A stretch of DNA of 64,000 bases from a virus, in the IMG/VR virus record IMGVR_UViG_3300023179_000046, positions 38,990 through 102,989 of that record; one strand, 5' to 3'. Below, piece after piece: positions 8,211 through 22,802 of this stretch (position 1 is the first letter of the stretch; each line of letters starts with the position of its first letter). The position numbers were made by a program, and so were the translations under genes. The notes under the pieces were generated by a model. The model ran no database searches. It was not told the origin of the DNA and saw only the letters and a list, made by a program, of their open reading frames with translations.

Positions 8211-8280
8211 AAAAAAGCACCTAAATTCACATAAAATATTTAACAGAGACACCAAGTGTAGCACGCCCCCTGCCTTAAAC

Positions 8281-9303: not shown

Positions 9304-9459
9304 GCTACACTTTCTCTATAAGTACTTAATAAGAACAAAATATAATATATATAAATTATAGTATATATTACTATATAGTATAGTTAACTAAAGTTAACTA
9401 TACTATACCACCCCCACCCTGAAAAATGATACACTAGGAATCTCCTTGAAAGGAACACC

Positions 9460-9684
9460 ATGTTAATCATTCCAATAAACAAACACACCCTAAGCCTCGT
9501 CACAGTACTAAACGACGACGTAGAACCACCAATACCAGTACACGAAAAATTCCCCAACCTTGACGCCACATACCTCCTATGGGACAAAAAAGGCAACAAC
9601 GTTTACACAAAAATAATCCACTGGACCGAACACGAACTCTTGAAAGAAGATGTCGGACACCCAATCTTCTTTAGAGAACAATAA
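9460..9684 (+). CDS. Hypothetical protein
   Basis: RBS GAAAGGA; translationally coupled to the next ORF. Confidence 0.7.
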   Translation: MLIIPINKHTLSLVTVLNDDVEPPIPVHEKFPNLDATYLLWDKKGNNVYTKIIHWTEHELLKEDVGHPIFFREQ

Positions 9685-9938
9685 TGCCCCAAAGCAACAC
9701 ACCAAAAAACCAAACCCTAACATACTACTTCGAATACACGCAACTAGTAGCCCAACAAAAAACAAAACCACTACTAGACTGCGCCAACAACCACCAAATG
9801 CTACACCCACACTACGACACACAAAAAAACAAACTATACTTCCAATGCCTCACCTGCGACCAAAAAGTCCACCCCGGCCAAAACATCACACAAAAAATAA
9901 AACAAATAGTAAACCAACACCAAGAAAACAACCCATGA
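9684..9938 (+). CDS. Hypothetical Zn-ribbon-like protein
   Basis: C..H and CLTC motifs; coupled ORF. Confidence 0.7.
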   Translation: MPQSNTPKNQTLTYYFEYTQLVAQQKTKPLLDCANNHQMLHPHYDTQKNKLYFQCLTCDQKVHPGQNITQKIKQIVNQHQENNP

Positions 9939-10135
9939 ACCAACAACAAACAGACACCCTCCTAGAAATACTCACAGGCATCTACATACAAACACTCCGC
10001 ATATACGACCAACTCGCCATCATCGGAGACAAACTAGGAGCAGACACCACACAACTAGCCAACCTACACGAACAAGGACACACCATCGGCCCCGACCCCG
10101 CCCTCACAATAGACCAAGACCAAGGACAAACATGA
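9935..10135 (+). CDS. Hypothetical protein (MNQQQTDTLLEIL...)
   Basis: ATGA overlaps at both ends; ATG at 9935 inside the longer called ORF. Confidence 0.7.
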   Translation: MNQQQTDTLLEILTGIYIQTLRIYDQLAIIGDKLGADTTQLANLHEQGHTIGPDPALTIDQDQGQT

Positions 10136-10332
10136 CACACTGGAACCAAAAAATAACAAACCTCCTATGGAAAGCCATAGACGACAACCACGAAACAATA
10201 AACAAACTAAGAATCAAAAAAGAAGAAGCACAACAAACAATCCAAACAATAAACCAAGAAATCGAAAACCTACACAACGACAACCACGAAATACAACAAC
10301 AAATACTAAAAATAGTCTCACCAAAAAACTAA
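10132..10332 (+). CDS. Hypothetical coiled-coil protein
   Basis: RBS AAGGA, heptad pattern. Confidence 0.7.
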   Translation: MTHWNQKITNLLWKAIDDNHETINKLRIKKEEAQQTIQTINQEIENLHNDNHEIQQQILKIVSPKN

Positions 10333-10606
10333 ACCCAAAACGACAAAATGTTAACAAAAAAATTCAAACCCAAAACCACAAAATGTTAACAAATTTTTAA
10401 AATGTATGGATACGCCTTCGGCATAGCGGCGCGCGCTAAGGTAGTGCGCCCATACGGGCGGCGTGTCAAGCCTTATGGCGTGTGACATACGCCACATCGT
10501 GTTTGGTTGCAGAATGGTTGCAAACGCCCGTTTCGGGTCGCTGACTGTCGGACCCCTAGTGTAGTGTTCTACTTGTCAGAGAGAAACACTAATGAAAGGT
10601 TAGACA

Positions 10607-10789
10607 ATGATCCACAAGTACCAAACTCGTCTCACGACCGCCGCTGCGTTGCGCGCCGGTCAAGTCCTTTACCACGGCGGGTCCATCTCGTCGGTGTCGT
10701 TCGATGGTCTTAGCGTCATCGTTCGCGCTTGCGGTAGGGAGTACACGTTCCAAGCGCGCGAGCGCGTTCGGATCTACCCTAACCTCTAG
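10607..10789 (+). CDS. Small hypothetical protein, paralog of 12002..12199
   Basis: Shared YQTRL...YHGG.I...RVRIYPNL; RBS GAAAGG. Confidence 0.85.
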   Translation: MIHKYQTRLTTAAALRAGQVLYHGGSISSVSFDGLSVIVRACGREYTFQARERVRIYPNL

Positions 10790-10871
10790 GTTGCAGTAGG
10801 GGTGCAACGTCACCCCTACTGTCGGACCCCCGTGCTAGGCTCTCACTATCAACAACAACGAAAGGCAAGAA

Positions 10872-11135
10872 ATGACCATCAAGGGCGAACGTCACCTTAT
10901 CAACTACCGGGGCAGCGTAATCTTCGCTGGCCGCTCGCCGTGGGATCTCAATCACCCTGAGAAGGCTCTAGTTCGGGTTCACATCAACGGCCAGTGCTAC
11001 TCGGACGGCGTATGGTCAGACACTCGCACCGATGAGGCGATGGACTACATCGACCGCATCCTAGGCACCTATGGCCCCGACCTTATGCCACAGGGCAGGC
11101 TTGCCCAGTGGATTGTCGAACGCGCCAACGTCTGA
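10872..11135 (+). CDS. Hypothetical protein
   Basis: Own promoter and RBS GAAAGG. Confidence 0.8.
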   Translation: MTIKGERHLINYRGSVIFAGRSPWDLNHPEKALVRVHINGQCYSDGVWSDTRTDEAMDYIDRILGTYGPDLMPQGRLAQWIVERANV

Positions 11136-11177
11136 CCCCTGCACTACCCCTGCAATATCAAACACTAACGAAAGGTA

Positions 11178-11417
11178 ATGCCCATGTATTCATCCGGTGT
11201 CAACGCTTATGGACACGCTGTGGAGTTGGAACACTACACGCGCTTTGTCTACTCGGAGGATGGTCTAGATGAGACCGTTGTGCCGTGCGGTTTCGTTGGA
11301 ATGGTGGATGCATCATTCGATGGGTCTAACGGTATTCTTGACTGCCCCGCCTGTGGCGATGAAATCGAAATCGAAGATGGTAAAGCCCATTGGGCCGATG
11401 CTTGGATTAGTGCCTAA
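11178..11417 (+). CDS. Hypothetical protein with CPACG motif
   Basis: RBS GAAAGG; Zn-ribbon-like. Confidence 0.75.
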   Translation: MPMYSSGVNAYGHAVELEHYTRFVYSEDGLDETVVPCGFVGMVDASFDGSNGILDCPACGDEIEIEDGKAHWADAWISA

Positions 11418-11445
11418 TCATTCTCTAGAAAGAAAGAAGAAATAA

Positions 11446-11595
11446 ATGATGATGAAATACATTGACACATTCCCGCTTTGCGAGCATTGCGATATCGAAA
11501 TGACCGAAGAATGCAACTTCGGATATCGCCACTGGCAATGCAACTGCATTGTTTGTAAAGAATGTCTATGTGCATTCATCGCCCCAATGCATTAG
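11446..11595 (+). CDS. Cys-rich micro-protein (below ORF cut-off)
   Basis: MMMKYIDTFPLCEHC...QCNCIVCKECLCAFIAPMH; followed by hairpin 11595-11620. Confidence 0.6.
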   Translation: MMMKYIDTFPLCEHCDIEMTEECNFGYRHWQCNCIVCKECLCAFIAPMH

Positions 11596-12001
11596 GGGGG
11601 ATATTCTAATATTCCCCCCGCCATTGTTTGATAAAAGAATAGCGAATAAAAAGAATGCATAAAAGAATGCATTCTAAAATAAAAAAGAATGCGATTTGAC
11701 ATTTTTTTAGAATGCGGGCAAGTACTTTGCCCGCGAAATTAATACTTGTCAATGCTTTAAGATAACGATTATGTAACGCTTTTGTAAATGCATTTATTTA
11801 ATTCATGAATAACAATTCAATAACAATTCAATAAACATATTCATGAATAATATGCATAACCATGCATAATATACACACATGGCATGTGATGTAGGTCACA
11901 TCGGCTTAGGTTGCAGAACGGTTGCAAACAGCCCGTTTAGACAAACTACTGTCAGACCCCCATGCTAGACTGATACCATCAACAACAAGAAAGGCAAGAC
12001 A

Positions 12002-12199
12002 ATGACTAAGACCAACGTTCGTTACCAGACCCGCCTAGTGGCCGCCCGCAATTTGCAGGTCGGCACCGTGTGCTACCACGGGGGCGAGATTGTCTCGCGC
12101 GTGCCCAAGAACGGCATCGGAATCGTTGTCACGTTCCGTGACGGTTCCGAGCGTTACTTTGCATACTCTGATCGGGTCAGAATCTACCCCAATCTCTGA
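12002..12199 (+). CDS. Small hypothetical protein, paralog of 10607..10789
   Basis: Shared motifs; promoter at 11950. Confidence 0.85.
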   Translation: MTKTNVRYQTRLVAARNLQVGTVCYHGGEIVSRVPKNGIGIVVTFRDGSERYFAYSDRVRIYPNL

Positions 12200-12251
12200 C
12201 CTGTCAGCCCCCCATGCTAGGCTCTATCAACAACAACGAAAGGTAATCAAA

Positions 12252-12362
12252 ATGTGGGAAATCATCTGTGAATTCGGATCGTGCAAGAACGTTGCAGAGG
12301 TCACCTACCCCGATGGTCGGGGAGATCAAATCCACTATTGCGGATTCCACGAACCGAATTAG
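12252..12362 (+). CDS. Micro-protein (MWEIICEFGSC...YCGFH)
   Basis: Promoter at 12202, RBS GAAAGG. Confidence 0.65.
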   Translation: MWEIICEFGSCKNVAEVTYPDGRGDQIHYCGFHEPN

Positions 12363-12391
12363 GTTCTCCCAACAACAAGAAAGGCAACACC

Positions 12392-12520
12392 ATGAATCAG
12401 GACATATGGGACCAACTCAATGACCTGCACTGGCAGGATGAGTCGCTCTGGTGCCCCCAATGCTCCGAGTGCTCTCAGCCGTGGCCCTGCCTCACCCGTC
12501 AACTCCTAGACCGTCTCTAA
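12392..12520 (+). CDS. Micro-protein, paralog of 14772..14918
   Basis: CSECSQPWPCLTRQLL vs CNECGKSWPCPTRWLL. Confidence 0.75.
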   Translation: MNQDIWDQLNDLHWQDESLWCPQCSECSQPWPCLTRQLLDRL

Positions 12521-12535
12521 AGAAAAGGTAATACA

Positions 12536-12721
12536 ATGATCGTTCACAAATCAATTTCGTACAATGAGTACTTCAATTCCGTTGGCCTTGACCAATGCAT
12601 TCCCTGTAACGAAATGTACATTGTTCTGGAATGCATTGAATGCGGCGATACAATTGGCTGCTACTATTGTGAGGATGACTATTCTATTCCTCACGATTGT
12701 TTCGCATACATTTCGGAATAA
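12536..12721 (+). CDS. Cys-rich hypothetical protein
   Basis: Three CxxC motifs; RBS AAGG. Confidence 0.7.
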   Translation: MIVHKSISYNEYFNSVGLDQCIPCNEMYIVLECIECGDTIGCYYCEDDYSIPHDCFAYISE

Positions 12722-12928
12722 ATAGAATACCCGCCGAAATTAGCGGGTAATTCTTTTCCAAAAAAGAATGCAATTTGACTAAATTTTAAAAGGCGGGCAA
12801 GTTCTTGCCCGCTTGACCTATCTCTGTCAAGCCTTACGTTGCATACATTACATAGGCTTTTTGGCTTGCCATTGTCGGCCCCACCGTGTAGAGTTTGGCT
12901 ACCAACCCAACGAGCGAGAGGCCCGCCC

Positions 12929-13078
12929 ATGTTTGACGACCGCACCCCCGCGCTGGAAGAAATTGCCGAAATGTGGCTCTACGATTGGGCCGTCCTCTGG
13001 GCCGCGAACGAGTATTTCCCTGAGGATTGGGAGGACCGCGACCCGGCTGAATGGCTGGACGACGCGCCAGAATTCTAA
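12929..13078 (+). CDS. Acidic micro-protein, paralog of 14189..14365
   Basis: Shared PE.WEDRDPAEWLDDAP and near-identical 5' UTR; sole gene in its module. Confidence 0.8.
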   Translation: MFDDRTPALEEIAEMWLYDWAVLWAANEYFPEDWEDRDPAEWLDDAPEF

Positions 13079-13291
13079 AACCCTTGCCCCTTCGGGGGCA
13101 AGCGGGTAAGTACTTGCCCGCGCAGAGCGCGCTGTCAAGTACTTACGATAACGATTAAGTAACGCATTTATATTCACATTTATTGCATATTATTCATGGT
13201 TGCAGAATGGTAGCAAGATCAGTTTGGGTCTTGTGAACTGTCGGACCCCCATGCTACGCTGGCTCTATCAACAACGACGAAAGGTGATCGA

Positions 13292-13516
13292 ATGATTCCC
13301 CTCCCGCCCATTCCCAACGATGCAATTAACGAGGCTACGGCAGAAGTATTCGCCATCACAAACTCGCTCACCCTAGCCGCACGGGTAGGACACGATGCAC
13401 TAAACGCTGCCCTGCCTTACATTGTTATTGCGACGCTGCGCCACTTTGCTGACTGGAACCCCGATGGTGGACTTGACTTGCTGGCCGACGAGATTGAGGG
13501 GGAACTAAACAAATGA
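13292..13516 (+). CDS. Hypothetical protein
   Basis: Promoter at 13239, RBS GAAAGG. Confidence 0.75.
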   Translation: MIPLPPIPNDAINEATAEVFAITNSLTLAARVGHDALNAALPYIVIATLRHFADWNPDGGLDLLADEIEGELNK

Positions 13517-13681
13517 CCACCCTACGCTCATTCTGCGTTTGCCTTCACGAATCCTACATGCGATTCCAGTATAATGAAGAAACCGGGCTTATTCATTGCC
13601 CCAAATGCAATTACCCGTCGTGGTACAGCCTGTACCCCGAAGAACTGTCTCAATCAGAATACTAGACAACGGAGAAATAAA

Positions 13682-13870
13682 ATGACCTACACCATCATTA
13701 GCAACAAGGCACAATGCGGAGAATGCGGATTCATTATCGAATCCCGCCACCGCCACGACTTCGCCTCCTGTAAATGTGGTAACATCTTCGTTGACGGAGG
13801 AAAAGAATACCTCCGCAGAGGATTCAAGAACGCAGACACATTCATCGAATTGTCAGAAACAGAGGGATAA
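13682..13870 (+). CDS. Common small phage Zn-binding protein
   Basis: AQCGECG..IES.HRHDF..CKCG...VDGG..YLRR pattern; RBS GGAG. Confidence 0.8.
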   Translation: MTYTIISNKAQCGECGFIIESRHRHDFASCKCGNIFVDGGKEYLRRGFKNADTFIELSETEG

Positions 13871-14188
13871 TAACTAATGATGCGCTCCCGCCGAAATAGG
13901 GCACTATTGAAAAGCGCAGCCTGCCCGTGGTATTGCTGCTGCGAATTGGAACGCAACCGAACATATCGCACCCGCGAAAAAAACAATTGGCGTAAATGGC
14001 GAAAAGAATACTAGAGAGCCGCTTGACCCTTCGGGGTCAAGCGGGCAAGTATTTCCCCGCGCGAAATACTTTGTCAACCTCTTACGATGTGGCTTACGTC
14101 ACACAGAAATAACACTGTTTTGAGTTGCATCTGTCAGTCCCGCCCTGTATCGTTCTACCTACCAACCCACCGAGCGAGAGGCACGCCC

Positions 14189-14365
14189 ATGCTGCACCCC
14201 ACCACCGACCAGTTCCTGCCCGAAGAATGGGAGGACCGCGACCCCGCCGAGTGGCTGGACGACGCGCCCGATGACGAGCCTCCCATGCCCGAGGACGACG
14301 AGGACTGGGGGGACCATTGGGAGGACGCCGCCGCCGAATATTTCTTATTCGGAGGTGACTACTAA
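14189..14365 (+). CDS. Acidic micro-protein, paralog of 12929..13078
   Basis: Shared motif; very D/E-rich; sole gene in its module. Confidence 0.8.
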   Translation: MLHPTTDQFLPEEWEDRDPAEWLDDAPDDEPPMPEDDEDWGDHWEDAAAEYFLFGGDY

Positions 14366-14543
14366 AACCCTTGCCCCTTCGGGGGCAAGCGGGTAAGTAC
14401 TTGCCCACGGCAAGTACTTAGTCAACACCTTACGATGTGACATACGACACACTAAAATAACGCTGTTTGGGGTTCCATATGTCAGACCCATCCGGTAAAG
14501 TTCTACCTGTCAGCAAGAAACCCCAACCGAAAGGAAGTGCCCC

Positions 14544-14702
14544 GTGGGAATCTCATCCCCCACCGTCATCGTCTCCACCGAAATCTGGTCCACCAAGCAC
14601 GGCAAGGTCACCAAGGCCGTCGTTCGTACCCCCAACGGCACCTTCCTTGGAGCCACCAACCAGACCGCCGCGATTGCCCCGGTTGTAGTTGGTCGTCGGT
14701 AA
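14544..14702 (+). CDS. 52-aa protein missed by the ORF track, paralog of 20958..21122
   Basis: GTG start after GAAAGGA; STEIWSTKHGKVTKAVVRTPNGTFLGATNQTAAIAP; hairpin follows. Confidence 0.85.
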   Translation: MGISSPTVIVSTEIWSTKHGKVTKAVVRTPNGTFLGATNQTAAIAPVVVGRR

Positions 14703-14771
14703 ATAGATCGAACAATGGCCCCCCGCATTGTTCGGGGGGCATTGTTGTTACTAAAAGAATAGGATAAAGAA

Positions 14772-14918
14772 ATGTCATCAGTCTCCGACACGCTTGACGA
14801 ACTTTTCGAAATGCATGGCCCCGACCTTAGCAATTCGTGGATGCCCCCGTACCTCTGCAACGAGTGCGGAAAGTCATGGCCGTGCCCGACGCGCTGGCTG
14901 CTGAACCATCTAGCGTAA
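14772..14918 (+). CDS. Micro-protein, paralog of 12392..12520
   Basis: CxxC...WPC.TR.LL motif; RBS AGGA. Confidence 0.7.
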   Translation: MSSVSDTLDELFEMHGPDLSNSWMPPYLCNECGKSWPCPTRWLLNHLA

Positions 14919-15049
14919 CGATGCTTGACCCTTCGGGGTCAAGCGGGCAAGTACTTGCCCGCCAAAGGCGGGCTGTCAAGTACTTACGATGTGACATACG
15001 ACACACGATTATGCTTCCATTTGTCGGCCCGCTGTGGTAGATTGCTCTC

Positions 15050-15762
15050 ATGACACAGACACTCACCCGCAGCAAAGACCGCAAGGTCGCCAACCTAGTT
15101 TCCCCTAATGGCAAGTCGGCAGTAATTGCTAATTCATTCGGTATTCCCGCCGGTAAGCAATTCTCTTGCCCCTCTGCCACCGATTTCTGTTCCACCATTT
15201 GCTACGCTGGCAAACTGGAGAAGATTTACACTAACGTCAAGTCTGCGCTAATTCGCAATTGGGAAGCGTTGCAGGATAAGTCCACCGAAGAATTGTATGA
15301 CATTCTTTCGGGAATGATCGCAGAATTCAATTCGGAATGTGACAAGCGCGGAGCCGATAAACTATTCCGTATCCATTGGGACGGTGATTTCTTCGCCCCG
15401 CATTACACCGCCGCATGGTCTAAGGTAATTGCAAACAACCCACAGATTCAATTCTGGGTCTATACTCGCGTTGCCACCGCTGCCCTATTCTTGCACGCGC
15501 GCAAGTATTCCAACCTTGGATTGTATTTCTCTGCCGACCCTGACAATATTGAGGCTGCCCGCCTATTAGAGTCTAAAGGCATCAATATTGCCTATGTCGA
15601 TAAGTCATTCGCTCAGGGTAAAGAACAATTCCCCAACGCTACCCGCTGCCCGAGAACAATAAGGCACTCCCGCTAATCACCGATAAGGGATCAGCCTGTG
15701 CCCGTTGCGGATTGTGTATCAATGGCCGCAAGTCCGTGCTATTCTCCACTAGTAAGAAGTGA
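15050..15762 (+). pseudogene. Gp88-like Cys-motif (radical-SAM-like) protein with a 1-nt frameshift near 15650
   Basis: SCPSAT.FC..ICYA and FRIHWDGDFF; expected C-terminus (CPENNK...CARCGLC...KK) continues in another frame to TGA 15760-15762; apparently leaderless start. Confidence 0.75.
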
Positions 15763-15847
15763 GCATCCTAGACGTAATTGTGTTTCTATTCGTCTATCTC
15801 CCCGCAATGATTGGCATGTTCATAGTAATACCATTTCTAATTGCATT

Positions 15848-15905
15848 CATCTTGCATAAAGAATAGCGGTCATCTTGCATAAAGAATAGCGGTCATCTTG
15901 CATAA
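15848..15905. repeat. 23-bp tandem repeat, 2.5 copies
   Basis: CATCTTGCATAAAGAATAGCGGT at 15848 and 15871, partial at 15894. Confidence 0.9.
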
Positions 15906-16131
15906 TAGTTAACGGTGGGGCGGCTAATGTCGCCCCACCTAAGTACTTGACAGCCCGCCTGTCGGCGGGCAAGTACTTGCCCGCAGGGCAAGCACTTGTC
16001 AATACCTTACGATGTGATCTTTGACACGTTTTTTAGGTTGCAGAATGGTTGCAGGTGGTAGGGCACTGTCAGTCGGCTGTGCTAATCTTCTCTCAGTCGA
16101 AAGGTTCGGCTACACAAGAACAGGAGTCACC

Positions 16132-16389
16132 ATGTGGCAGTTTGACGCAGCGTGCGACACGCAAGACACCGAAATCTTCTTCTCTGAACTCCGCAGCAAG
16201 GTTGTCAAGGCTAAGGCAATCTGCGCCACATGCCCCGTTCGTAGCCAATGCCTCTCATTCGCTATTGCCGAAGATATCGACACCGGAATCTTCGGAGGCC
16301 TCACCCCCGCCGAGCGTAAAGAATTGTTGCGCCCTAAGAACAACGAAGGCCCCCGCGCCCAATGGGAAATCGACCTACTTGACTCGTAA
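16132..16389 (+). CDS. whiB: WhiB-family transcription factor
   Basis: AAC...FFS...AKAICATCPVRSQC...GIFGGLTPAER; RBS AGGAG. Confidence 0.93.
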   Translation: MWQFDAACDTQDTEIFFSELRSKVVKAKAICATCPVRSQCLSFAIAEDIDTGIFGGLTPAERKELLRPKNNEGPRAQWEIDLLDS

Positions 16390-16424
16390 TCCTGCAACAT
16401 CAAACAACTAATAAGGAGAAACAA

Positions 16425-16760
16425 ATGGGAATTATTCAGCACGACGCCGTTCTCGTCACATTCAGCGACTACGCAGAATCGCGGGGCACATTCGAACTTG
16501 AGAAATTGCGCGCTCTCCTGCCCGTAGAGGTCGCAAGCCTGCTCTCTGTCACCGATGCCGTATCCAACGGATACCGTACCCTATTCTTTGCCCCCGATGG
16601 GTCTAAGGAGGGATGGGAAACTTCTAACGATGGCGACGACGCCCGTGACATTATTCGCCAATACTGCGAAGAAACGTTGCCCTATTGCGAAGTTATTGTA
16701 GTTTCCTATGGAGAACTGGGAAACAGAATTTGGGATTACCCCGACGGATATGTAAACTAA
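16425..16760 (+). CDS. Hypothetical protein
   Basis: RBS AAGGAG; [11 protein letters not shown] motif. Confidence 0.8.
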
Positions 16761-16942
16761 ACAATGGCACGATAATGCCGAAATTGGGCGAACGCGCGCC
16801 GGTGGTTGTGTTGTATCTGCGCGGTCTGCTGGGTGTGCCGACTTTGCCGTGATGCGGCCTTTCGGACCCCCGGATCTTTGGAACGCCAATAGCCTGCAAA
16901 CCCCCTGGTCTTTGGAACGTAAGTTGGTAGAGTTCAACCACG

Positions 16943-17240
16943 GCGATCCTTCGCGGTCCGGCCGCGTGGTCGCCAACATGGAAGCCTCGCTCGGCGTTCC
17001 CACCGCAACGAGCGTGCGCGGCGTGCCAGCGAAGTTGCTCATTGACAACCGAATCGTCATCAACAACCACCTCGCGCGCGCACGGCCGACAGTTGAGGCC
17101 AAGGAGGCGGCGTGGGCAGCAGCAGTCGAGAGTGACGAGTTGTCCAACGCGATCCTCGGCGCCACCGTGGGGGGCTTCAACCAGCCCGATCAGCGTGACC
17201 TGCTTCGTCCGTTCGTGGACAAGTACGTCGCCGCCCTGTC
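16943..17240 (+). other. High-GC mosaic of bacterial gene fragments (kgd/sucA-like then pepN-like)
   Basis: [37 protein letters not shown] resembles actinobacterial Kgd; [12 protein letters not shown]...[19 protein letters not shown] resembles the PepN C-terminal domain. Confidence 0.75.
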
Positions 17241-17278
17241 ACGGCGGAGGTCACGGGTTCGAATCCCGTTAGAGTCGC
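17229..17278 (+). tRNA. tRNA-Asp(GTC), 3' half only
   Basis: CCGCC-CTGTCAC-GGCGG anticodon arm, GGTTCGAATCC T arm, TAGAGTCG acceptor strand; no 5' half upstream. Confidence 0.8.
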
Positions 17279-17563
17279 TTGACACCCGCCCTTCGGGCGG
17301 GTAAGTACTTGCCCGCCAACGGCGGGCTGTCAAGTACTTTACGTTGTGACATTCACCACACATTTTTTGCCGTTTATCCTTGACTCTAGGATAGCCGTAC
17401 TGTAAAGTACATACCATGAAGAACAAGCGCAGAGAGCAGAAGCAGAAAGAATACGTCGAACACGTCCAGAATCTCCGCAGAGGTTCTACCACTGACCGTC
17501 ACAAGTCCGTCAAGGATTACCGCCGTAAGAATAAGTCAAACACTCTAGGATGGGAGAAAGAAT

Positions 17564-17962
17564 ATGCGTGACATTATTGTGTTCCACCCCGGCACAGGTA
17601 CTATCCTGCCCCTGAACGATGAGGTTTACCTTATCGACTATGCCTCCCTTAGCGAAGAAGAACAGGGAATGGTTGACTACGGCAACATCGACCTTGACGA
17701 AATCGAAACCTACCGTTTGTCCAACCACCTTGTCGGCTATCAGTACTTTGGCGACGAGATTGACGACTCCGATGACTACCTTGTTGGCATCCCGACTACC
17801 TCCATCCCGCTTGACGTTGTGGTTGACCCTAACGAGGACTTTGGCGAGTTGCTTGACGACGACGAAGATGAGGACTTTGGCGATTCGGAAGCGTGGACGG
17901 AAGAAGAAATAGAAGATCTCAAGAAAGTATTAGCAGAATGGACGCCCCCGGCACCCGAATGA
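17564..17962 (+). CDS. Highly acidic hypothetical protein
   Basis: D/E-rich, RBS GGAG; downstream of a TTGACT-N17-TAAAGT promoter at ~17380. Confidence 0.75.
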   Translation: MRDIIVFHPGTGTILPLNDEVYLIDYASLSEEEQGMVDYGNIDLDEIETYRLSNHLVGYQYFGDEIDDSDDYLVGIPTTSIPLDVVVDPNEDFGELLDDDEDEDFGDSEAWTEEEIEDLKKVLAEWTPPAPE

Positions 17963-18395
17963 GCGCATACGCTGTACTTGCAATCATAGTTTTAACTTTC
18001 GCTCCCGCCCTCACATACTACCTAGGCTATAAGCAGGGTAGATCAGACCTAAACTATGAATGGGGTAAAGATGCCTAATCTAGAATACATTGGCTCGCTA
18101 GCCCACTACCACGGGCCATGCGAAATCGTAGACGAAGCCTACACACGACAGGGCCGCTACTCCATTGTTCTCCCCAACGGCAAAATGCTAATCAACGTCC
18201 GCCCCCAATCCATTCTCATAATCCAAGACTAAACTGCTTGACCCTTCGGGGTCAAGCGGGTAAGTACTTGCCCGCAAGGCAAGCACTTGTCAACCCCTTA
18301 CGATGTGACATTACGCACACCAAAAAAGGTTACAATTCTGGCCTCCTTGCCGTAAAGTTTGTCCTGTCAGAAAGCCCCCCACATAAGGAGTCACA

Positions 18396-18914
18396 GTGCC
18401 CAACTGGTGCAGCAACAGTATCCGAGTCAGCCCCAAGGGCTACAACTTGGCTATCTCTTACTCATTCATGCTCGCGCTAATGTCATACTACCCATTCTTC
18501 ACACTCTCCGCTGTCAAGGGCAAGGCACCCAACGACACCGACTCCTATGACTGGAATGTCAAGAACTATGGCACCAAGTGGGACATTGACCCGGTGGCAT
18601 GGAAGATTGAGATTGACGATGTAGACTATTGGTACACCCTATGGGTTACCTTTGACACCGCATGGTCCCCGGCCACACCCGTCGTAGAACAACTGTCCAT
18701 CGAATATCCCCAATTGGTATTCACCCACGCCTACTGCGAAATGGGAATGGACTACCTAGGCGTAGACCAATGGCAAGCGGGGGAAAAGACTGTAATTGAG
18801 GACAGCGCACCATCTGAATATGATTGGGACGACGAAGATCCCTACTCTATGCCCGAAACCCCCTCAGACCTTGCTGAGTTTCTAGAGGCAAACCGCATCC
18901 ACCTAGGAGGATAA
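18396..18914 (+). CDS. DUF1281/YubB-like ferredoxin-fold protein
   Basis: MPNWCSN...DWNVKNYGTKWD...FDTAWSP. Confidence 0.85.
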   Translation: MPNWCSNSIRVSPKGYNLAISYSFMLALMSYYPFFTLSAVKGKAPNDTDSYDWNVKNYGTKWDIDPVAWKIEIDDVDYWYTLWVTFDTAWSPATPVVEQLSIEYPQLVFTHAYCEMGMDYLGVDQWQAGEKTVIEDSAPSEYDWDDEDPYSMPETPSDLAEFLEANRIHLGG

Positions 18915-18917
18915 CCA

Positions 18918-19130
18918 ATGGTATTCCAAGAAGCCTACGGAGAACTAACTAAAGAACAATGGAGACTCTACAAGAAACACTCCATTACTCCCGCCGAACA
19001 CTACATGCTAGAATCATACGCAAACTATGACGCCCAACAAATAATTCAAATAATCAAAAACTCCATAAACAAAGCAGGCAAACTCTCCCCCTCATTCCTT
19101 ATGAGCGCAATTGCAGAAATAAACAACTAA
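18918..19130 (+). CDS. Hypothetical protein
   Basis: RBS AGGAGG. Confidence 0.75.
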   Translation: MVFQEAYGELTKEQWRLYKKHSITPAEHYMLESYANYDAQQIIQIIKNSINKAGKLSPSFLMSAIAEINN

Positions 19131-19320
19131 CAAGCCCTTGCCCCTTCGGGGGCAAGCGGGTAAGTACTTGCCCGCGCGGAGCGCGGCTGTCAAGTACTTT
19201 ACGTTGTGACTTACGACACACTAAAATAACTACAAATATCCTAGAAAAACCCTTCCGTTTGTCAGACTGATGATGTAGTCTATGACTACAAAGTTAGCCA
19301 CTACCCACTAGGAGATTCAC

Positions 19321-20331
19321 ATGCATGGTCTAGAAACCAATGGCACAGAGGTCGCTTTCGCCCTCCGTGGTGCCCCCGCGTGGCACAACCTCGCAAACAA
19401 GACTTTCGGTGCCGATGAGACGGTCACTACCTCGCAGATGCTTGACGCTGCCATGCTTTCCAACTGGAACATCCAACTGCACGCCGTTTCGGAGTACGCG
19501 CCCGAGTCATTCCGTTTCTCGTCCGACTCGTACATGGTCACCCGTACCAACCCGTTCGACGGTGGCACTGACGTTCTCGCCACCGTTGGCGAGCGTTACA
19601 CTGTCGTTCAGAACGAGAGCCTGTTTGAGTTTGCCGATCACATTCTGGACGGCGGCGCATCGTGGGAGTCGGCTGGCTCCATCAAGGGCGGTCGTCGTGT
19701 GTTCGGTTCGCTCGTCATCCCGCGCGAGATTGTTCTGGACCCCAACGGTGCCAACGACAAGACTGTCACCTACCTGCTCGTCAACACGTCGCACGACGGA
19801 TCAACCGCTGTGCAGGCTTCCATCACCCCCGTTCGCGTGGTCTGCCAGAACACGCTCAACCTTGCGCTCCACAAGGTCAAGCAGACCTACAAGATCCGTC
19901 ACACTCAGACCGTGGGCGGTAAGGTTGCTGCGGCTCAGTCTGCGCTTGGCCTGACCTACACCTACATGGACGCTTTCAGTGCAGAGGTTACTGCCCTGTT
20001 TGAGCAGTCCATCACCGATCAGACTTTCGACTCCATCGTCAAGGCTATCTACCCTCAGCCTGAGAAGGACGCTAAGGGTGCCCTGACCAAGTGGACGAAC
20101 AAGGTCGATCTCGTTCAGGACTTGTACCGTACCTCCCCCACTAACGCCAACATCAAGGGCACCGCGTGGGGCGCGCTCAACGCTCTCACTGAGCGCCTTG
20201 ACTGGTTCCGCAACGGTCGCGGCGATGACTCTAAGGAGAACGTGGCCGCTGCCGCTACTGGCTTCGACCCCGTGACCAACACGGAGAAGAACCGCATCCT
20301 GTCCGTTGTCAAGGAACTTTCTTTCGCCTAG
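19321..20331 (+). CDS. DUF932 (phage/plasmid-like TIGR03299-type) protein
   Basis: PAWHNL, VG.RY.VVQN, SHDGS, TPVRVVCQNTL, IRHT, GTAWGALNA.TE. Confidence 0.92.
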   Translation: MHGLETNGTEVAFALRGAPAWHNLANKTFGADETVTTSQMLDAAMLSNWNIQLHAVSEYAPESFRFSSDSYMVTRTNPFDGGTDVLATVGERYTVVQNESLFEFADHILDGGASWESAGSIKGGRRVFGSLVIPREIVLDPNGANDKTVTYLLVNTSHDGSTAVQASITPVRVVCQNTLNLALHKVKQTYKIRHTQTVGGKVAAAQSALGLTYTYMDAFSAEVTALFEQSITDQTFDSIVKAIYPQPEKDAKGALTKWTNKVDLVQDLYRTSPTNANIKGTAWGALNALTERLDWFRNGRGDDSKENVAAAATGFDPVTNTEKNRILSVVKELSFA

Positions 20332-20566
20332 AGCGAACATGCAGCAGCACCCCCCGGCTCACGCCGGGGGGAGTTGTTGTCAAATTGTTACCTAAAAGTA
20401 CTTGACAAAATTTTTTTGCGGGCAAGTACTTGACCGCGCGAAGCGCGGCTGTCAAGTACTTTACGGTGTGTATTACGACACACATTTTTTAGCACAAAAA
20501 TGTATTGACCTTGGGGTCGGGGGATGCTAAGGTTTACCTACAACGACAGAGAGGGAGGTACAGGAT

Positions 20567-20764
20567 ATGGTTGTTACTATTCAGGCACCGTCATCTGCCG
20601 CACAGAAGCGTGCTTTTAGTCAGTGTATGATTATGGGTTTGGAAGCGACTGTTTTGGAGGACAATTGTATTGATTTGGTTGTTCAGCAGTTGTGGAAGGC
20701 TAAGCATGTTGCTGGTATGGTTGATGGTGAGATTGTTGCGGTTCATGACCGGGTTAAGATTTAG
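20567..20764 (+). CDS. Hypothetical protein
   Basis: TTGACC-N17-TAAGGT promoter at ~20505 and RBS GGAGG. Confidence 0.75.
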   Translation: MVVTIQAPSSAAQKRAFSQCMIMGLEATVLEDNCIDLVVQQLWKAKHVAGMVDGEIVAVHDRVKI

Positions 20765-20957
20765 GAGTTTGTATGGCTGACAGTAATGATGCGCGTGCGA
20801 TTCAGATTTTTACTCAGGCTTGGAATAGTGGTTATGATGACGCTATTGCTGAGGTTATTGATTATTTATCTTCATTGTATGATATGACTAATAGTTTTGC
20901 GGAAAAGCAGTTGATTGATTCTATTATTGCCAATTTTGAGTCTAACTAAGGAGTATT

Positions 20958-21122
20958 ATGTCTAACATTGTTTCTACCCCCGCCGTTGTTGTTTCTACTG
21001 AGGTTTGGTCTACCAAGCACGGTAAGGTGACGAAGGCTGTTGTTCGCACCCCGTCCGGTACGTTCCTTGGTGCTACTAATCAGACTGCGGCGATTGCGCC
21101 GATGATTGTAGGTCGCCGCTAG
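20958..21122 (+). CDS. 54-aa protein missed by the ORF track, paralog of 14544..14702
   Basis: RBS AAGGAG; STEVWSTKHGKVTKAVVRTPSGTFLGATNQTAAIAP. Confidence 0.85.
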   Translation: MSNIVSTPAVVVSTEVWSTKHGKVTKAVVRTPSGTFLGATNQTAAIAPMIVGRR

Positions 21123-21134
21123 ATTTAAGTCATT

Positions 21135-21160
21135 AGGGGGAGGCTGAGCCTCCCCCTTTT
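21135..21160 (+). terminator. Intrinsic terminator
   Basis: AGGGGGAGGC-TGA-GCCTCCCCCT followed by TTT. Confidence 0.8.
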
Positions 21161-21167
21161 GGCGTGC

Positions 21168-21249
21168 GCGGGTGTGGCGGAATTGGCACACGCAGCAAAC
21201 TTAAAATTTGCCACCGAAAGGTATACGGGTTCAACTCCCGTCACCCGCA
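21168..21249 (+). tRNA. tRNA-Leu(TAA)
   Basis: Acceptor GCGGGTG/CACCCGC, D loop GGAATTGG, anticodon arm GCAAA-CTTAAAA-TTTGC, variable arm, GGTTCAACTCC. Confidence 0.92.
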
Positions 21250-21273
21250 CGCTAGTTTAGTTTAAGGAGAGAT

Positions 21274-21489
21274 ATGCCTAAATGTTTTGATTGTAATAAT
21301 GTTACAATGTTTGAATTTTCTACTACACAATGGGATACAGTTTACTTTGACCCCGAGGGATTTATCGTTGACACCAAGAGGCTCTATAAGGTAGACTCAT
21401 TCCTACCGCCCACCTGTGGGCGGTGTGAAAGTACGAATATTGATGCCACATTCCTTGATGCTGCACTATTGGAGGTAGAAGATGAATGA
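21274..21489 (+). CDS. Hypothetical protein with two CxxC motifs
   Basis: RBS AAGGAG. Confidence 0.75.
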   Translation: MPKCFDCNNVTMFEFSTTQWDTVYFDPEGFIVDTKRLYKVDSFLPPTCGRCESTNIDATFLDAALLEVEDE

Positions 21490-21826
21490 TAGGGACTTCC
21501 TAAGGAGTTTAGGTTTTGTTGTTGGTGAGCGTGGTCGTTTCTCTAAGGAGATGGTGGCTGCCCTAGCATCTCGCAATTCTAAGACTGAGACATCTACCAA
21601 GTTTGACAAGATTGATGAGGCGGGACTTCCTGAGAAACTAAAGCGAACACCTGTCAGGGAAGCCGAACAACTATATGGCTATGACAAGTATGGTCACAAG
21701 ATTGCTTTCGTACTTTGTAATTCATGTAATCAGCATATGATTTGGTGTACCTGCAAGGCAGGTATTCTCGCCCCGTCCCATATTATTCGTAGCGAAAACC
21801 CCCTAGTCACTGTCCGTGCGGCATGA
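21482..21826 (+). CDS. Hypothetical protein, Lsr2-DNA-binding-like N-terminus
   Basis: R.FLRS.GFVVGERGRFS resembles the Lsr2 RGR motif; C-terminal Cys cluster. Confidence 0.55.
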   Translation: MNDRDFLRSLGFVVGERGRFSKEMVAALASRNSKTETSTKFDKIDEAGLPEKLKRTPVREAEQLYGYDKYGHKIAFVLCNSCNQHMIWCTCKAGILAPSHIIRSENPLVTVRAA

Positions 21827-21859
21827 TACTATTAGACACCATCGACACTAGGAGGCAGT

Positions 21860-22192
21860 ATGGCTAGGACCACGGAAGATAAGGTAGCCAAGTATCTGAT
21901 TGACGGATGCGCGGATTCTCGTCTCAACGAGGTTGCGTTGGCTCACACTATGGGGAGGCAGGCGTATGACGTACAGGCGCGGTTCTGGAACACTCTGGTT
22001 TCTTACATTTACTTTCATGCTCACAATTATGAGCATGGTCTATTTGACGAAGGTACATATGAGATTGCTAGATTGTCTAAGAAGATCAAGGACTTAGCGT
22101 TTGCTGATGAGCGTAAGTATTCCTCTGATCCCGTTCATGAACGGTATGGAGATTTTGAGTTGCAAGATGGTCAATTGCGTCAAGGGTTTTAA
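21860..22192 (+). CDS. Hypothetical protein
   Basis: RBS AGGAGG; promoter variant at 21811. Confidence 0.75.
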   Translation: MARTTEDKVAKYLIDGCADSRLNEVALAHTMGRQAYDVQARFWNTLVSYIYFHAHNYEHGLFDEGTYEIARLSKKIKDLAFADERKYSSDPVHERYGDFELQDGQLRQGF

Positions 22193-22352
22193 TATGAGTT
22201 TAATTTTAGATTATATTTCTGTGCCTTGTGATGCTTGCGGGGCGGAAGTTGGAGAAATTTGTCGTCCCCATTGTATAGGTATAGTAAAATACTATGAGGT
22301 AGATACGCTATCAGACTAATCAGTCAAGTGTTATAAAGAATTACATCTACCT

Positions 22353-22383
22353 AGGGCGGGAGTTTTTAACTCCCGCCCTTTTA
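22353..22383 (+). terminator. Intrinsic terminator ending the plus-strand region
   Basis: AGGGCGGGAGTT...AACTCCCGCCCT followed by TTT. Confidence 0.8.
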
Positions 22384-22802
22384 GTTTGCCTAAGTACTTG
22401 ACACGGCCCGCTGGCGCGGGCAAGTACTTGACCTCACATATTTTTTTTGTCTAGACCTTTACGATGGGTTGTTTTTAGCACATTTTTGGCATGTTTTTAT
22501 AGTTATGCAAGTAAGCATACTCTCATGTTTTTCTATTTTTATAGACATTACGATGATTTGATTTTGGCACTGTTATGAGGGTACAAAAAAAACTCATGTT
22601 ATGGGATTCCATAGCATGAGTTTGCATGCGTTTACGTATGCAAGCACGCCAAAGGCGTGTATATACTTTGTTTTAGCAAGAGAATATAGTTTGTATTAAG
22701 GTTTAATGGTTAACTCTTAATATGGGGCGGGTATATCTAGGGTTATCCCCCTTGTATATCTATAGGGATATACATATCATGCATCCCGCCCAATATATGC
22801 AT

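Follow-up and report, generated by a model that had tools for sequence, protein, structure and literature searches.

A tripartite dyad repeated in front of small, probably early genes of a freshwater phage: a candidate operator in composite transcription-control cassettes

An array of small genes with a recurrent dyad

The window analysed here is a stretch of 64,000 nucleotides, bases 38990-102989 of the 102,989-bp linear IMG/VR record IMGVR_UViG_3300023179_000046, a viral record with an estimated completeness of 82%. A scan for open reading frames (ORFs) and ribosome-binding sites (RBSs) located in it an array of about 38 small + strand genes, spanning 9460..22319 and bordered by - strand genes on either flank. 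The element studied here, hereafter the dyad, is 54-57 bp long, has the consensus TTGAC-N20-(A)AGTACT(T)-N19-21-GTCAA, and recurs in this array in 12 clear copies and one degenerate copy, all on the + strand, between 10.4 and 22.5 kb. The GC content of the array was 50-53%, compared with about 37-43% in the rest of the phage. The flanks encode a ribonucleotide reductase (RNR), a glycosyltransferase, rIIA/rIIB-like and UvsX-like proteins, and a DnaE-type polymerase.

With the full-dyad pattern TTG[AC]C-N18-20-AGT[AT][CT]T-N19-21-GTC[AT]A, exactly 12 matches were found on the + strand (11696, 12775, 13084, 14023, 14371, 14925, 15947, 17279, 18238, 19138, 20402 and 22398), compared with a mean of 0.08 matches in block shuffles of the whole genome. 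The degenerate 13th copy lies at about 10426-10480. The core GCGGGYAAGTACTTGCCCGC occurred 11 times at no more than three mismatches, compared with 0 times in 100 shuffles, and no dyad was found in the remaining 90 kb of the 103-kb record. A preliminary description, made from the sequence of the window, had reported these 12 clear and one degenerate copies over about 12 kb, their confinement to the region, and hairpins in their arms (CCCTTCGGGG and GCGCGAAGCGC), and pattern searches, shuffles and inspection of the arms bore out all of this. The same was true of the recurrence of the palindrome AAGTACTT, of which 20 of the 21 copies in the window fall within 9320-22422. Often there are two or three per element, 28-30 bp apart (for example at 20396/20424/20454), and the extra sites, at this distance from the dyad centre, sit outside the hairpin context. 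The lone site at 9320 directly adjoins the array and could have arisen by chance, about one site being expected per window.

Two further observations concern these palindromes and their surroundings. Eight AAGTACTT octamers were found within 5.9 kb of an unrelated, GC-rich (64% GC) bacterial contig (L044, JAABUK010000765.1), a density far above chance, and most of them lie in apparent coding sequence. The glycosyltransferase gene and the first gene of the array diverge from an AT-rich region that contains, at 9376-9412, a 15-bp inverted repeat, TATAGTATAGTTAAC ... GTTAACTATACTATA, with three overlapping promoter-like sites on the - strand beside it. This repeat may have a control function or be close to a genome end.

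The spacers of N20 and N19-21 were constant in 12 of 12 dyads, including three with an AT-rich, non-folding left arm (E1, E2 and E11 in Table 1). In nine copies the left arm is a GC hairpin, and seven of these nine have a C(UUCG)G loop. The right arm holds either a variable small hairpin such as GCGCGAAGCGC or a second CAAG(T/C)ACTTG site and ends in TGTCAA(GTACTT), followed by TTACG; the consensus of 13 aligned copies ends in TGTCAA-N4-5-TTACG and contains no GTTRRRY. The central 20 bp are conserved as sequence with zero covariation, whereas the flanking hairpins both vary and covary (CTTGCCCC/GGGGCAAG, CTTGACCC/GGGTCAAG and ACCCGCCC/GGGCGGGT). Terminal inverted repeats of 13 bp (AAAGTACTTGACA / TGTCAAGTACTTT) are present in three copies, and five copies have an asymmetric GGGT...GCCC variant, of which the reverse form was never seen. 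An Rfam search at E<=1 for known RNA families over the elements gave just two tRNAs and two sub-threshold hits.

Front ends, promoters and CRP-like boxes

The preliminary description took each unit to consist of its own regulatory front end plus cargo, and this is supported. Its account of the extent of the element held for the dyad, but the repeated unit is longer and continues to the right into a CRP-like box and then a promoter module. The front end begins 4-10 nt past the stop codon of the preceding gene with a GC hairpin, whose loop is mostly C(UUCG)G, and then consists of the dyad, a CRP/GlxR-like box, a promoter, and either a 5' untranslated region (5'UTR) with an RBS or a leaderless start; all dyad units have a single orientation with the promoter downstream. 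The box, TGTGA-N6-(T/A)CACA, directly follows TTACGA, with its centre at a fixed distance of 45-47 bp from the dyad centre. The promoter module lies 35-90 bp downstream of this upstream module and is of PafBC type in 11 cases and of the -35/-10 type in three. It is followed by a shared CAACAACGAAAGG-type leader or by an ATG 6-7 nt past the -10. Such a short distance, present in several genes, fits leaderless actinobacterial transcripts, and the starts at 15050 and 17416 are probably leaderless. In self-BLAST, the front ends matched one another over 50-140 bp at 80-94% identity. Two promoter modules (10820 and 12202) have no dyad, so not every unit is dyad-delimited, contrary to the preliminary description.

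The + strand of the array has 11 copies of the motif TGTC(A/G)G-N10-TAnnnT, usually with TGn before the -10, and the rest of the 103 kb has two on both strands together. The in-vivo consensus of PafBC-dependent promoters is tGTCgg(N10)tA(N3)T, where the GTC is read by PafB at about -26 and no -35 is present (Mueller et al. 2021, PMC8635444). The promoter module of the array (10546-19281) equals this published PafBC/RecA-NDp (RecA-non-dependent promoter) consensus in both sequence and spacing. The promoters of E8, E9 and E11 have TTGACN/TTACAA-17-TAA(A/G)GT, and a -35-like hexamer (TTGCAT/TTGCCA) is also present in some of the PafBC-type copies. Profile searches of the phage record gave no WYL/PafBC-like protein (PF13280) and no sigma factor (PF04542, PF08281), and no paper linking PafBC/RecA-NDp promoters to phage early genes was found in the literature searched.

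Three other promoter candidates were rejected as a general feature of the dyad. TTGACA-N19-AGTACT lacks a TAnnnT -10; TACGAT/TACGTT, which follows the right arm, lacks both a -35 and TGn, and its spacing does not fit the PafBC motif; and TTTACG-18-TAAAAT fits only two or three copies of the dyad.

Matches to the CRP consensus at no more than one mismatch numbered eight genome-wide, and all eight lie in the array. The distances from the box centre to the first T of the -10 were 40.5, 41.5, 50.5, 52.5, 52.5, 53.5, 62.5, 63.5, 73.5 and 73.5 bp, that is, in steps of one helical turn, and the resultant length was 0.88-0.90 at a period of 10.6-11 bp (permutation p 0.0008 on 8 unique values). The box is thus phased to the promoter, and because its distance from the dyad is fixed, the register with the promoter extends to the upstream module as a whole. 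Classes of 42.5, 52.5, 62.5 and 73.5 bp also dominate in independent relatives, together with one out-of-phase class of 57.5 bp. A tandem GGTTGCA-N4-GGTTGCA was noted between box and promoter at 10505-10522, 13190-13215 and 16033-16050, only in units with the longer spacing of 62.5-73.5 bp, and it resembles a two-turn insert with another binding site.

Features of the array

The coordinates of the front ends and of the other features are collected in Table 1. A DUF7695 protein is also encoded in the array, and the GP88-family protein is 40% identical to NootNoot gp008. The presence of WhiB-like and Lsr2-like genes suggests that the host is an actinobacterium, and DNA of the phage was found in lake and freshwater metagenomes of six studies. 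Among the approximately 38 array ORFs, Pfam and PHROGs searches gave no helix-turn-helix (HTH) binder; what they gave was the WhiB-like protein, the Lsr2-like protein and a weak zinc-finger match. A separate terminator-like hairpin lies at 20350-20371, upstream of front end 11. The tRNA-Asp remnant was missed by ARAGORN and scored 35 bits with Rfam. It resembles a scar left by the replacement of a gene, with the cut inside a tRNA gene. Variants of the phage (see below) diverge exactly at 17229 (joint 16787>17229).

Table 1. Front ends and other features in and beside the array (positions in the window)
Feature	Position	Strand	Remarks
Lone AAGTACTT	9320..9327	.	divergent intergenic region at the array head, 17 bp upstream of the - strand glycosyltransferase start
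Front end 0	10426..10567	+	degenerate dyad 10426-10480, CRP-like box 10481-10496, GGTTGCA x2 10505-10522, PafBC-type promoter 10546-10567
PafBC-type promoter without dyad	10820..10841	+	
Front end 1 (E1)	11696..11971	+	dyad 11696-11752 (AT-rich arms, without H1 hairpin), CRP-like box 11885-11900, promoter 11950-11971
PafBC-type promoter without dyad	12202..12223	+	
Front end 2 (E2)	12775..12894	+	dyad 12775-12830 (centre GTTC), promoter 12873-12894 (also TTGCCA-17-TAGAGT)
Front end 3 (E3)	13084..13260	+	UUCG hairpin, dyad 13084-13138, ATAACG-repeat box replacing the CRP-like box, GGTTGCA, promoter 13239-13260
Front end 4	14023..14153	+	dyad 14023-14077 (degenerate centre), CRP-like box 14088-14103, promoter 14132-14153
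Front end 5	14371..14501	+	dyad 14371-14425, CRP-like box 14436-14451, promoter 14480-14501
Front end 6	14925..15043	+	dyad 14925-14979, CRP-like box 14990-15005, promoter 15022-15043; -10 6 nt from GP88-family ATG, probably leaderless
GP88-family gene	15050..15676	+	Pfam PF17338, E 2e-46; homolog in NootNoot terminal repeat (tblastn L037 4563-5171, E 1e-45)
Front end 7 (E7)	15941..16088	+	three-site dyad: left AAGTACTTGACA 15941, core 15965-15984, right CAAGCACTTG; box 16013-16028, GGTTGCA x2, promoter 16067-16088
WhiB-like transcription factor gene	16132..16389	+	Pfam PF02467, E 1.3e-21; actinobacterial hallmark
tRNA-Asp(GTC) remnant	17216..17269	+	3' two-thirds only; without D arm and 5' acceptor strand
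Front end 8 (E8)	17279..17408	+	dyad 17279-17333, CRP-like box 17345-17360, canonical TTGACT-17-TAAAGT promoter 17380-17408, probably leaderless ATG 17416
Front end 9 (E9)	18238..18358	+	dyad 18238-18293, CRP-like box 18304-18319, -10 TAAAGT 18353-18358
DUF1281_C gene	18396..18914	+	replaced/absent in three lake variants, from start codon to next gene's start
Front end 10	19138..19281	+	dyad 19138-19193, CRP-like box 19205-19220, promoter 19260-19281
DUF932 gene	19321..20331	+	55% identical to NootNoot gp003, in terminal repeat
Front end 11 (E11)	20396..20533	+	AAGTACTT at 20396, 20424, 20454; dyad 20402-20455; box 20467-20482; TTGACC-17-TAAGGT promoter 20505-20533
tRNA-Leu(TAA)	21168..21250	+	
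Lsr2-like DNA-bridging protein gene	21482..21826	+	PHROG 6269, E 3e-7
Element 12 (E12)	22392..22453	+	last copy, array end; T8 run in right arm; hairpin 22353-22379 before, AT-rich poorly coding DNA after

Two observations concern the head of the array and its neighbourhood. At about 8.3-10.4 kb the + strand has a strong A/C skew irrespective of gene direction. The RNR gene (5409-8264, - strand) contains an in-frame insertion of 864 bp (288 codons) at 7073-7936, which is also present in a near-identical phage (run X2) and cleanly absent in variants from three other lake runs, with a 4-bp overlap at the joint. It had a weak match to Intein_splicing (E 5.5e-4, below the Pfam cut-off) and is probably a mobile intein.

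Relation to the BE1 phages and uncultured relatives

Judged from its genes, the phage is related to the Streptomyces BE1 phages (Stanwilliamsviridae): its DnaE-type polymerase is 54-55% identical to those of the cluster BE1 phages BillNye, Mildred21 and NootNoot. Each direct terminal repeat of the BE1 phages is about 11 kb long and contains 20-25 small ORFs, one of them an lsr2-like gene (Hughes et al. 2018, PMC5764925). In NootNoot (NC_042009), a rIIA-like gene precedes the right repeat by 12 kb and the RNR gene follows the left repeat by 6.6 kb, so that collapsing the two repeats gives the order rIIA, repeat (on the opposite strand), RNR, which is the gene order of the present contig. The array shares with the BE1 repeat not only this position between rIIA-like gene and RNR but also homologs of the DUF932, GP88-family and Lsr2-like genes in matching order. 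As in the array, most small genes of the BE1 repeat have their own hairpin and palindrome, followed by a TGTC...TAGACT promoter and a GAAAGG RBS. On the coding strand of the NootNoot repeat we found a GGGCCC-TTCG-GGGCCC hairpin, nine copies of the palindrome TGTCCGGGCCCGGACA, a TTGnnn/TGTCCC-N10-TAGACT promoter and the RBS GAAAGGGG. The palindromes themselves differ, TGTCCGGGCCCGGACA in NootNoot compared with GCGGGYAAGTACTTGCCCGC and its TTGAC/GTCAA arms in the present phage. Another difference is that the present array is 10% richer in GC than the rest of its genome, and its terminal repetition is suggested by synteny. The word depth of Logan contigs was 1.1-1.9 times higher in the array than in the flanks, a single figure per contig without read starts, which speaks neither for nor against a terminal repeat. 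Gene content and synteny together suggest that the array is probably an early, host-takeover region and the counterpart of the BE1-phage direct terminal repeat, a relationship that the preliminary description had missed. No paper describing the BE1 intergenic motifs was found in the literature searched.

A search with the DUF932 protein gave 22 IMG/VR loci, dense arrays of tiny genes among them. Here the tiny genes are preceded by TGTCAGACCCC-N-TGnTAnnnT or TGTC(A/G)GTGG-N-TAnnnT, almost always on the gene strand, with 27 such motifs in L020, 18 in L030 and 10-12 in each of L019, L021, L023 and L033. Many of the loci also have perfect TGTGA-N6-TCACA boxes, and the classical TGTCRGTG form of the promoter occurs as well. 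However, neither AAGTACTT nor any other recurrent perfect palindrome was found in the 22 loci. Since the relatives share the promoter and the box, and not the dyad, promoter and box would be ancestral and the AAGTACTT dyad a lineage-specific addition, apparently placed after the terminator hairpin and ahead of the box. In six of the loci (L018, L022, L023, L025, L030 and L033), perfect DnaA-box-like motifs, TTATCCACA / TGTGGATAA, often in tandem, were noted in the interval between terminator hairpin and CRP-like box; they fill the slot that the AAGTACTT dyad holds in the present phage.

Other searches for relatives of the array, which may not have covered near-identical records, were negative. 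Megablast of the array against 50,697 phage records gave a tRNA fragment only, exact scans for the core in IMG/VR and Joint Genome Institute (JGI) metagenome contigs gave only single palindromes at chance level in unrelated GC-rich contigs, and a search of IMG/VR with the rIIB-like protein gave no relative.

Gene flux in lake variants

Five paralog pairs are distributed across units of the array: 10607/12002, 12392/14772, 12929/14189, 13877/17416 (weak, E 0.001) and 14544/20958. Variants of the phage were compared over 6.5-26.4 kb in Logan assembled contigs from four lake runs of four studies, and bins that were uncovered in some runs were ignored. Run X2 contained a near-identical phage and the three other runs contained variants of 90-97% identity; contig ends at the dyads indicate that the lake variants also carry the repeats. 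Genes were lost in variants at the joints 9442>9684, 12226>12379 and 16324>16744, and a gene was replaced at 18398>18917 in X4, X6 and X15. At 10865>10819 an extra mini-unit lies between duplicated copies of the promoter and leader, and at 13285>12250 the 36-codon gene at 12252 has moved behind the promoter and leader of unit 3. At 12812>13183 a deletion starts where the E2 core ends and stops just beyond E3. The preliminary description was therefore right that genes are duplicated within the array, and genes were indeed lost, replaced or moved in the lake variants.

That this exchange passes through the element was not supported. When 15 listed joints out of 38 were inspected by eye, about 3 of the 30 joint ends lay in or beside a dyad, which is about the share expected by chance. 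Five to seven of the 30 lay in promoter, 5'UTR or RBS repeats (joints within promoter/5'UTR repeats include 10865>10819, 12226>12379 and 13285>12250), and most others lay at gene boundaries. The proposal to look in related phages for the element and for breakpoints at it had a divided outcome: no relative with the same dyad emerged from the searches, and one listed variant deletion lies at a dyad, with most listed breakpoints elsewhere. The count of joint ends is indicative only. Gene flux is real and is aided by repeated control sequences in general, with no sign of a dyad-centred site-specific system.

Recognition of the dyad in DNA or in RNA

The reading that we favour, and regard as rather probable, is that the dyad is a lineage-specific upstream module of a composite transcription-control cassette placed before small early genes in a freshwater actinophage. 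The array would then be a set of PeSL-like (promoter early stem-loop) regulatory cassettes with a lineage-specific operator and a shared control switch. In this mechanism, the first hairpin would act in RNA as a terminator or insulator that also stabilises the upstream transcript at its 3' end, and the AAGTACTT sites together with the TTGAC/GTCAA arms would form a multi-site DNA operator for a putative dimeric or multimeric protein, which would switch all units on or off together. Since related phages have different palindromes, the phage itself would probably encode this putative protein. The box and the promoter would be the sites of action of a CRP-family protein of the host and perhaps of PafBC. 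The near-identical front ends of 50-140 bp could serve as substrates of homologous recombination, and gene shuffling would be a by-product, as in PeSLs.

Several observations argue for recognition of the dyad in DNA and are in line with the phased protein-binding site put forward in the preliminary description. The arm lengths are rigid even where the arms do not fold, and the central palindrome has no covariation while the neighbouring stems covary. The AAGTACTT sites outside hairpins, the lone site at 9320 and the phased box also count in favour of a DNA operator. A palindrome that varies between lineages is what would be expected of a co-evolving regulator and operator.

Other points weigh against this reading. 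All elements also fold stably as RNA, and the UUCG loops are an RNA signature, so that selection could act partly or wholly at the RNA level. In RNA of the + strand, the GGGT...GCCC asymmetry, never reversed in its five copies, would give a G-U pair. The spacing of the sites, 28-30 bp, is a non-integral number of helical turns, and the distance from dyad to promoter is less tightly phased than that from box to promoter. The array offers no HTH candidate binder in Pfam or PHROGs beyond the WhiB-like and Lsr2-like genes. The -35-like hexamers in some promoters mean that the motif by itself would not imply PafBC dependence, and it is synteny that makes the array a candidate terminal repeat.

The alternative that survives best, although we consider it unlikely, is that the dyad acts only in RNA, as a cluster of terminators/insulators, as an element for 3' stability or as a processing site of RNase III type, for which the RNase III sites between the early genes of T7 are a comparison. 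Two to four hairpins after each stop codon would split read-through early transcripts, and the AAGTACTT copies would pair into long stems. All elements indeed fold stably as RNA (-21 to -39 kcal/mol, with strongly negative z-scores of -3 to -5.4), and stems of 14-16 bp, formed by pairing of the central with the right AAGUACUU, appear in the minimum-energy folds of several copies. The C(UUCG)G tetraloop that seven of the 12 copies share with NootNoot, the start of the element so soon after the stop codon, and the T/G asymmetry that is always on the G-U-pairing side all fit this alternative, as does a T run after the GTGTG...CACAC stem in some copies. However, the length of the arms is constant where no hairpin is possible (E1, E2 and E11), and the central stem has zero covariation although its neighbours covary. 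Most elements have no T run, and a terminator scan flagged few of them; the need for a U tract in actinobacterial termination is debated. The phasing of the adjoining box to the promoter is a property of DNA, and in E7, E11 and E12 the dyad is already preceded by a separate, terminator-like hairpin.

It is very improbable that the dyad is a selfish repeat resembling a miniature inverted-repeat transposable element (MITE), spread through intergenic regions and without a role for the phage. Its restriction to one lineage, while relatives share promoter and box, and the 13-bp terminal inverted repeats of three copies would suit such an origin. Yet inspection revealed no target-site duplications at the element ends, three-site copies included, no transposase was found, and all copies occupy the same slot in the same orientation, 45-47 bp from the CRP-like box, with none outside the early array in 103 kb.

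Least credible is a dedicated recombination site of mobile cassettes, either integron/attC-like or served by a novel recombinase: the layout is cassette-like, the palindromes superficially resemble attC, paralogs occur in different units and the deletion 12812>13183 removes the unit between two dyads, but the 103-kb record, at its estimated 82% completeness, encodes no tyrosine or serine recombinase (for the tyrosine type, PF00589 gave no match at E<=1 and the controls were positive), the units have their own promoters, most listed variant joints are at promoter/5'UTR/RBS repeats or gene boundaries, the duplicated pair 14544/20958 is not bounded by dyads, and equally dense arrays of relatives have no such palindrome.

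Comparison with known systems

PeSL cassettes are known from T4-type phages (Arbiol et al. 2010, PMC2839356; Comeau et al. 2014, PMC4122927), and the preliminary description was right to name them as an analogue. Like the present front ends, they combine a stem-loop, an early promoter and a Shine-Dalgarno/start unit in near-identical copies within a plastic region of small ORFans. In both cases the copies are similar enough for homologous recombination, and relatives differ by insertions, deletions, replacements and displacements. In contrast to PeSL-bearing phages, the present phage is not T4-like; its DnaE-type polymerase and array genes are nearest to those of Streptomyces BE1 siphoviruses, although rIIA-like and UvsX-like genes are present. 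The distance between stem-loop and promoter is 70-130 bp here, with an operator-like dyad and a CRP-like box in between; most promoters are of the -26/-10, PafBC type, whereas those of PeSLs are sigma-70-like with -35/-10 (three copies here do have TTGACN-17-TAnnnT, and some of the other 11 a -35-like hexamer); and the listed joints favour the promoter/5'UTR part over the stem-loop/dyad. With its different phage and promoter types and its additional modules, operator and box, the array falls outside the PeSLs in the narrow sense.

The terminal-redundancy host-takeover module of Bacillus phage SPO1 and the pre-early region of T5 contain small early genes in many short operons. Like the array, they are blocks of about 10-13 kb at a genome end with a strong host-type promoter and a terminator for each operon. 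There is no sequence relationship, and in contrast to the array their promoters are plain sigma-A/sigma-70 promoters without a shared rigid dyad. Both regions have been cited as analogues of the BE1 repeats (PMC5764925). Functionally, the array is closest to PeSL cassettes and to the SPO1/T5 host-takeover modules, and by descent to the undescribed cassettes of the BE1 terminal repeats.

Among actinophages, the stoperators of cluster A mycobacteriophages are 13-bp asymmetric sites that occur genome-wide in temperate phages and bind the phage repressor, and cluster O mycobacteriophages have 17-bp dyad repeats. Both resemble the present system in having many copies of a short, operator-like intergenic motif in one orientation to transcription in an actinophage. 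Unlike stoperators, the element is a 55-bp tripartite dyad, and it occurs only in the early array of a phage that appears to be of lytic type.

The analogy with integron attC sites drawn in the preliminary description did not survive. The structured, imperfect palindromes between small gene units are similar, but there is no IntI and no R'/R'' GTTRRRY core, and most of the listed joints are not at the element. With 11 PafBC-type and three -35/-10 promoters, nearly every unit has its own promoter, in contrast to the promoterless cassettes of integrons; none of the integron hallmarks examined was found in the array.

The promoters match PafBC (RecA-NDp) promoters in the sequence and spacing of tGTCgg-N10-tAnnnT, and relatives carry TGTCRGTGG. 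They differ in being located in a phage, before early genes, in the -35-like hexamer of several copies, and in the lack of a WYL protein in the record. What is particular to the array is the rigid tripartite AAGTACTT dyad coupled to a phased CRP-like box and a PafBC-type promoter, together with the link to a cultured phage family.

Implications for early gene control

Early host-takeover genes hold the anti-defence and host-control tools of phages, and how they are switched is known for few model phages. The array offers a repeated and testable cis-regulatory grammar of hairpin, tripartite operator, CRP-like box and PafBC-type promoter, and because the cultured BE1 phages of Streptomyces share this layout, it can be dissected at the bench. 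The lake variants indicate that repeated control sequences let tiny genes change units without a dedicated recombinase.

A more far-reaching proposal, which we advance tentatively and regard as doubtful in its entirety, is that a freshwater actinophage group, and perhaps the BE1 phages too, has wired its first-expressed terminal-repeat genes to host PafBC, which is activated by single-stranded DNA and acts at -26/-10 promoters, and to a CRP-family protein at the phased box. The lineage-specific AAGTACTT operator and a phage factor would have been added to this wiring, providing concerted switching, insulation and joints for shuffling. If the dependence on PafBC is true, phages would exploit a DNA-damage regulator of the host to time their earliest genes.

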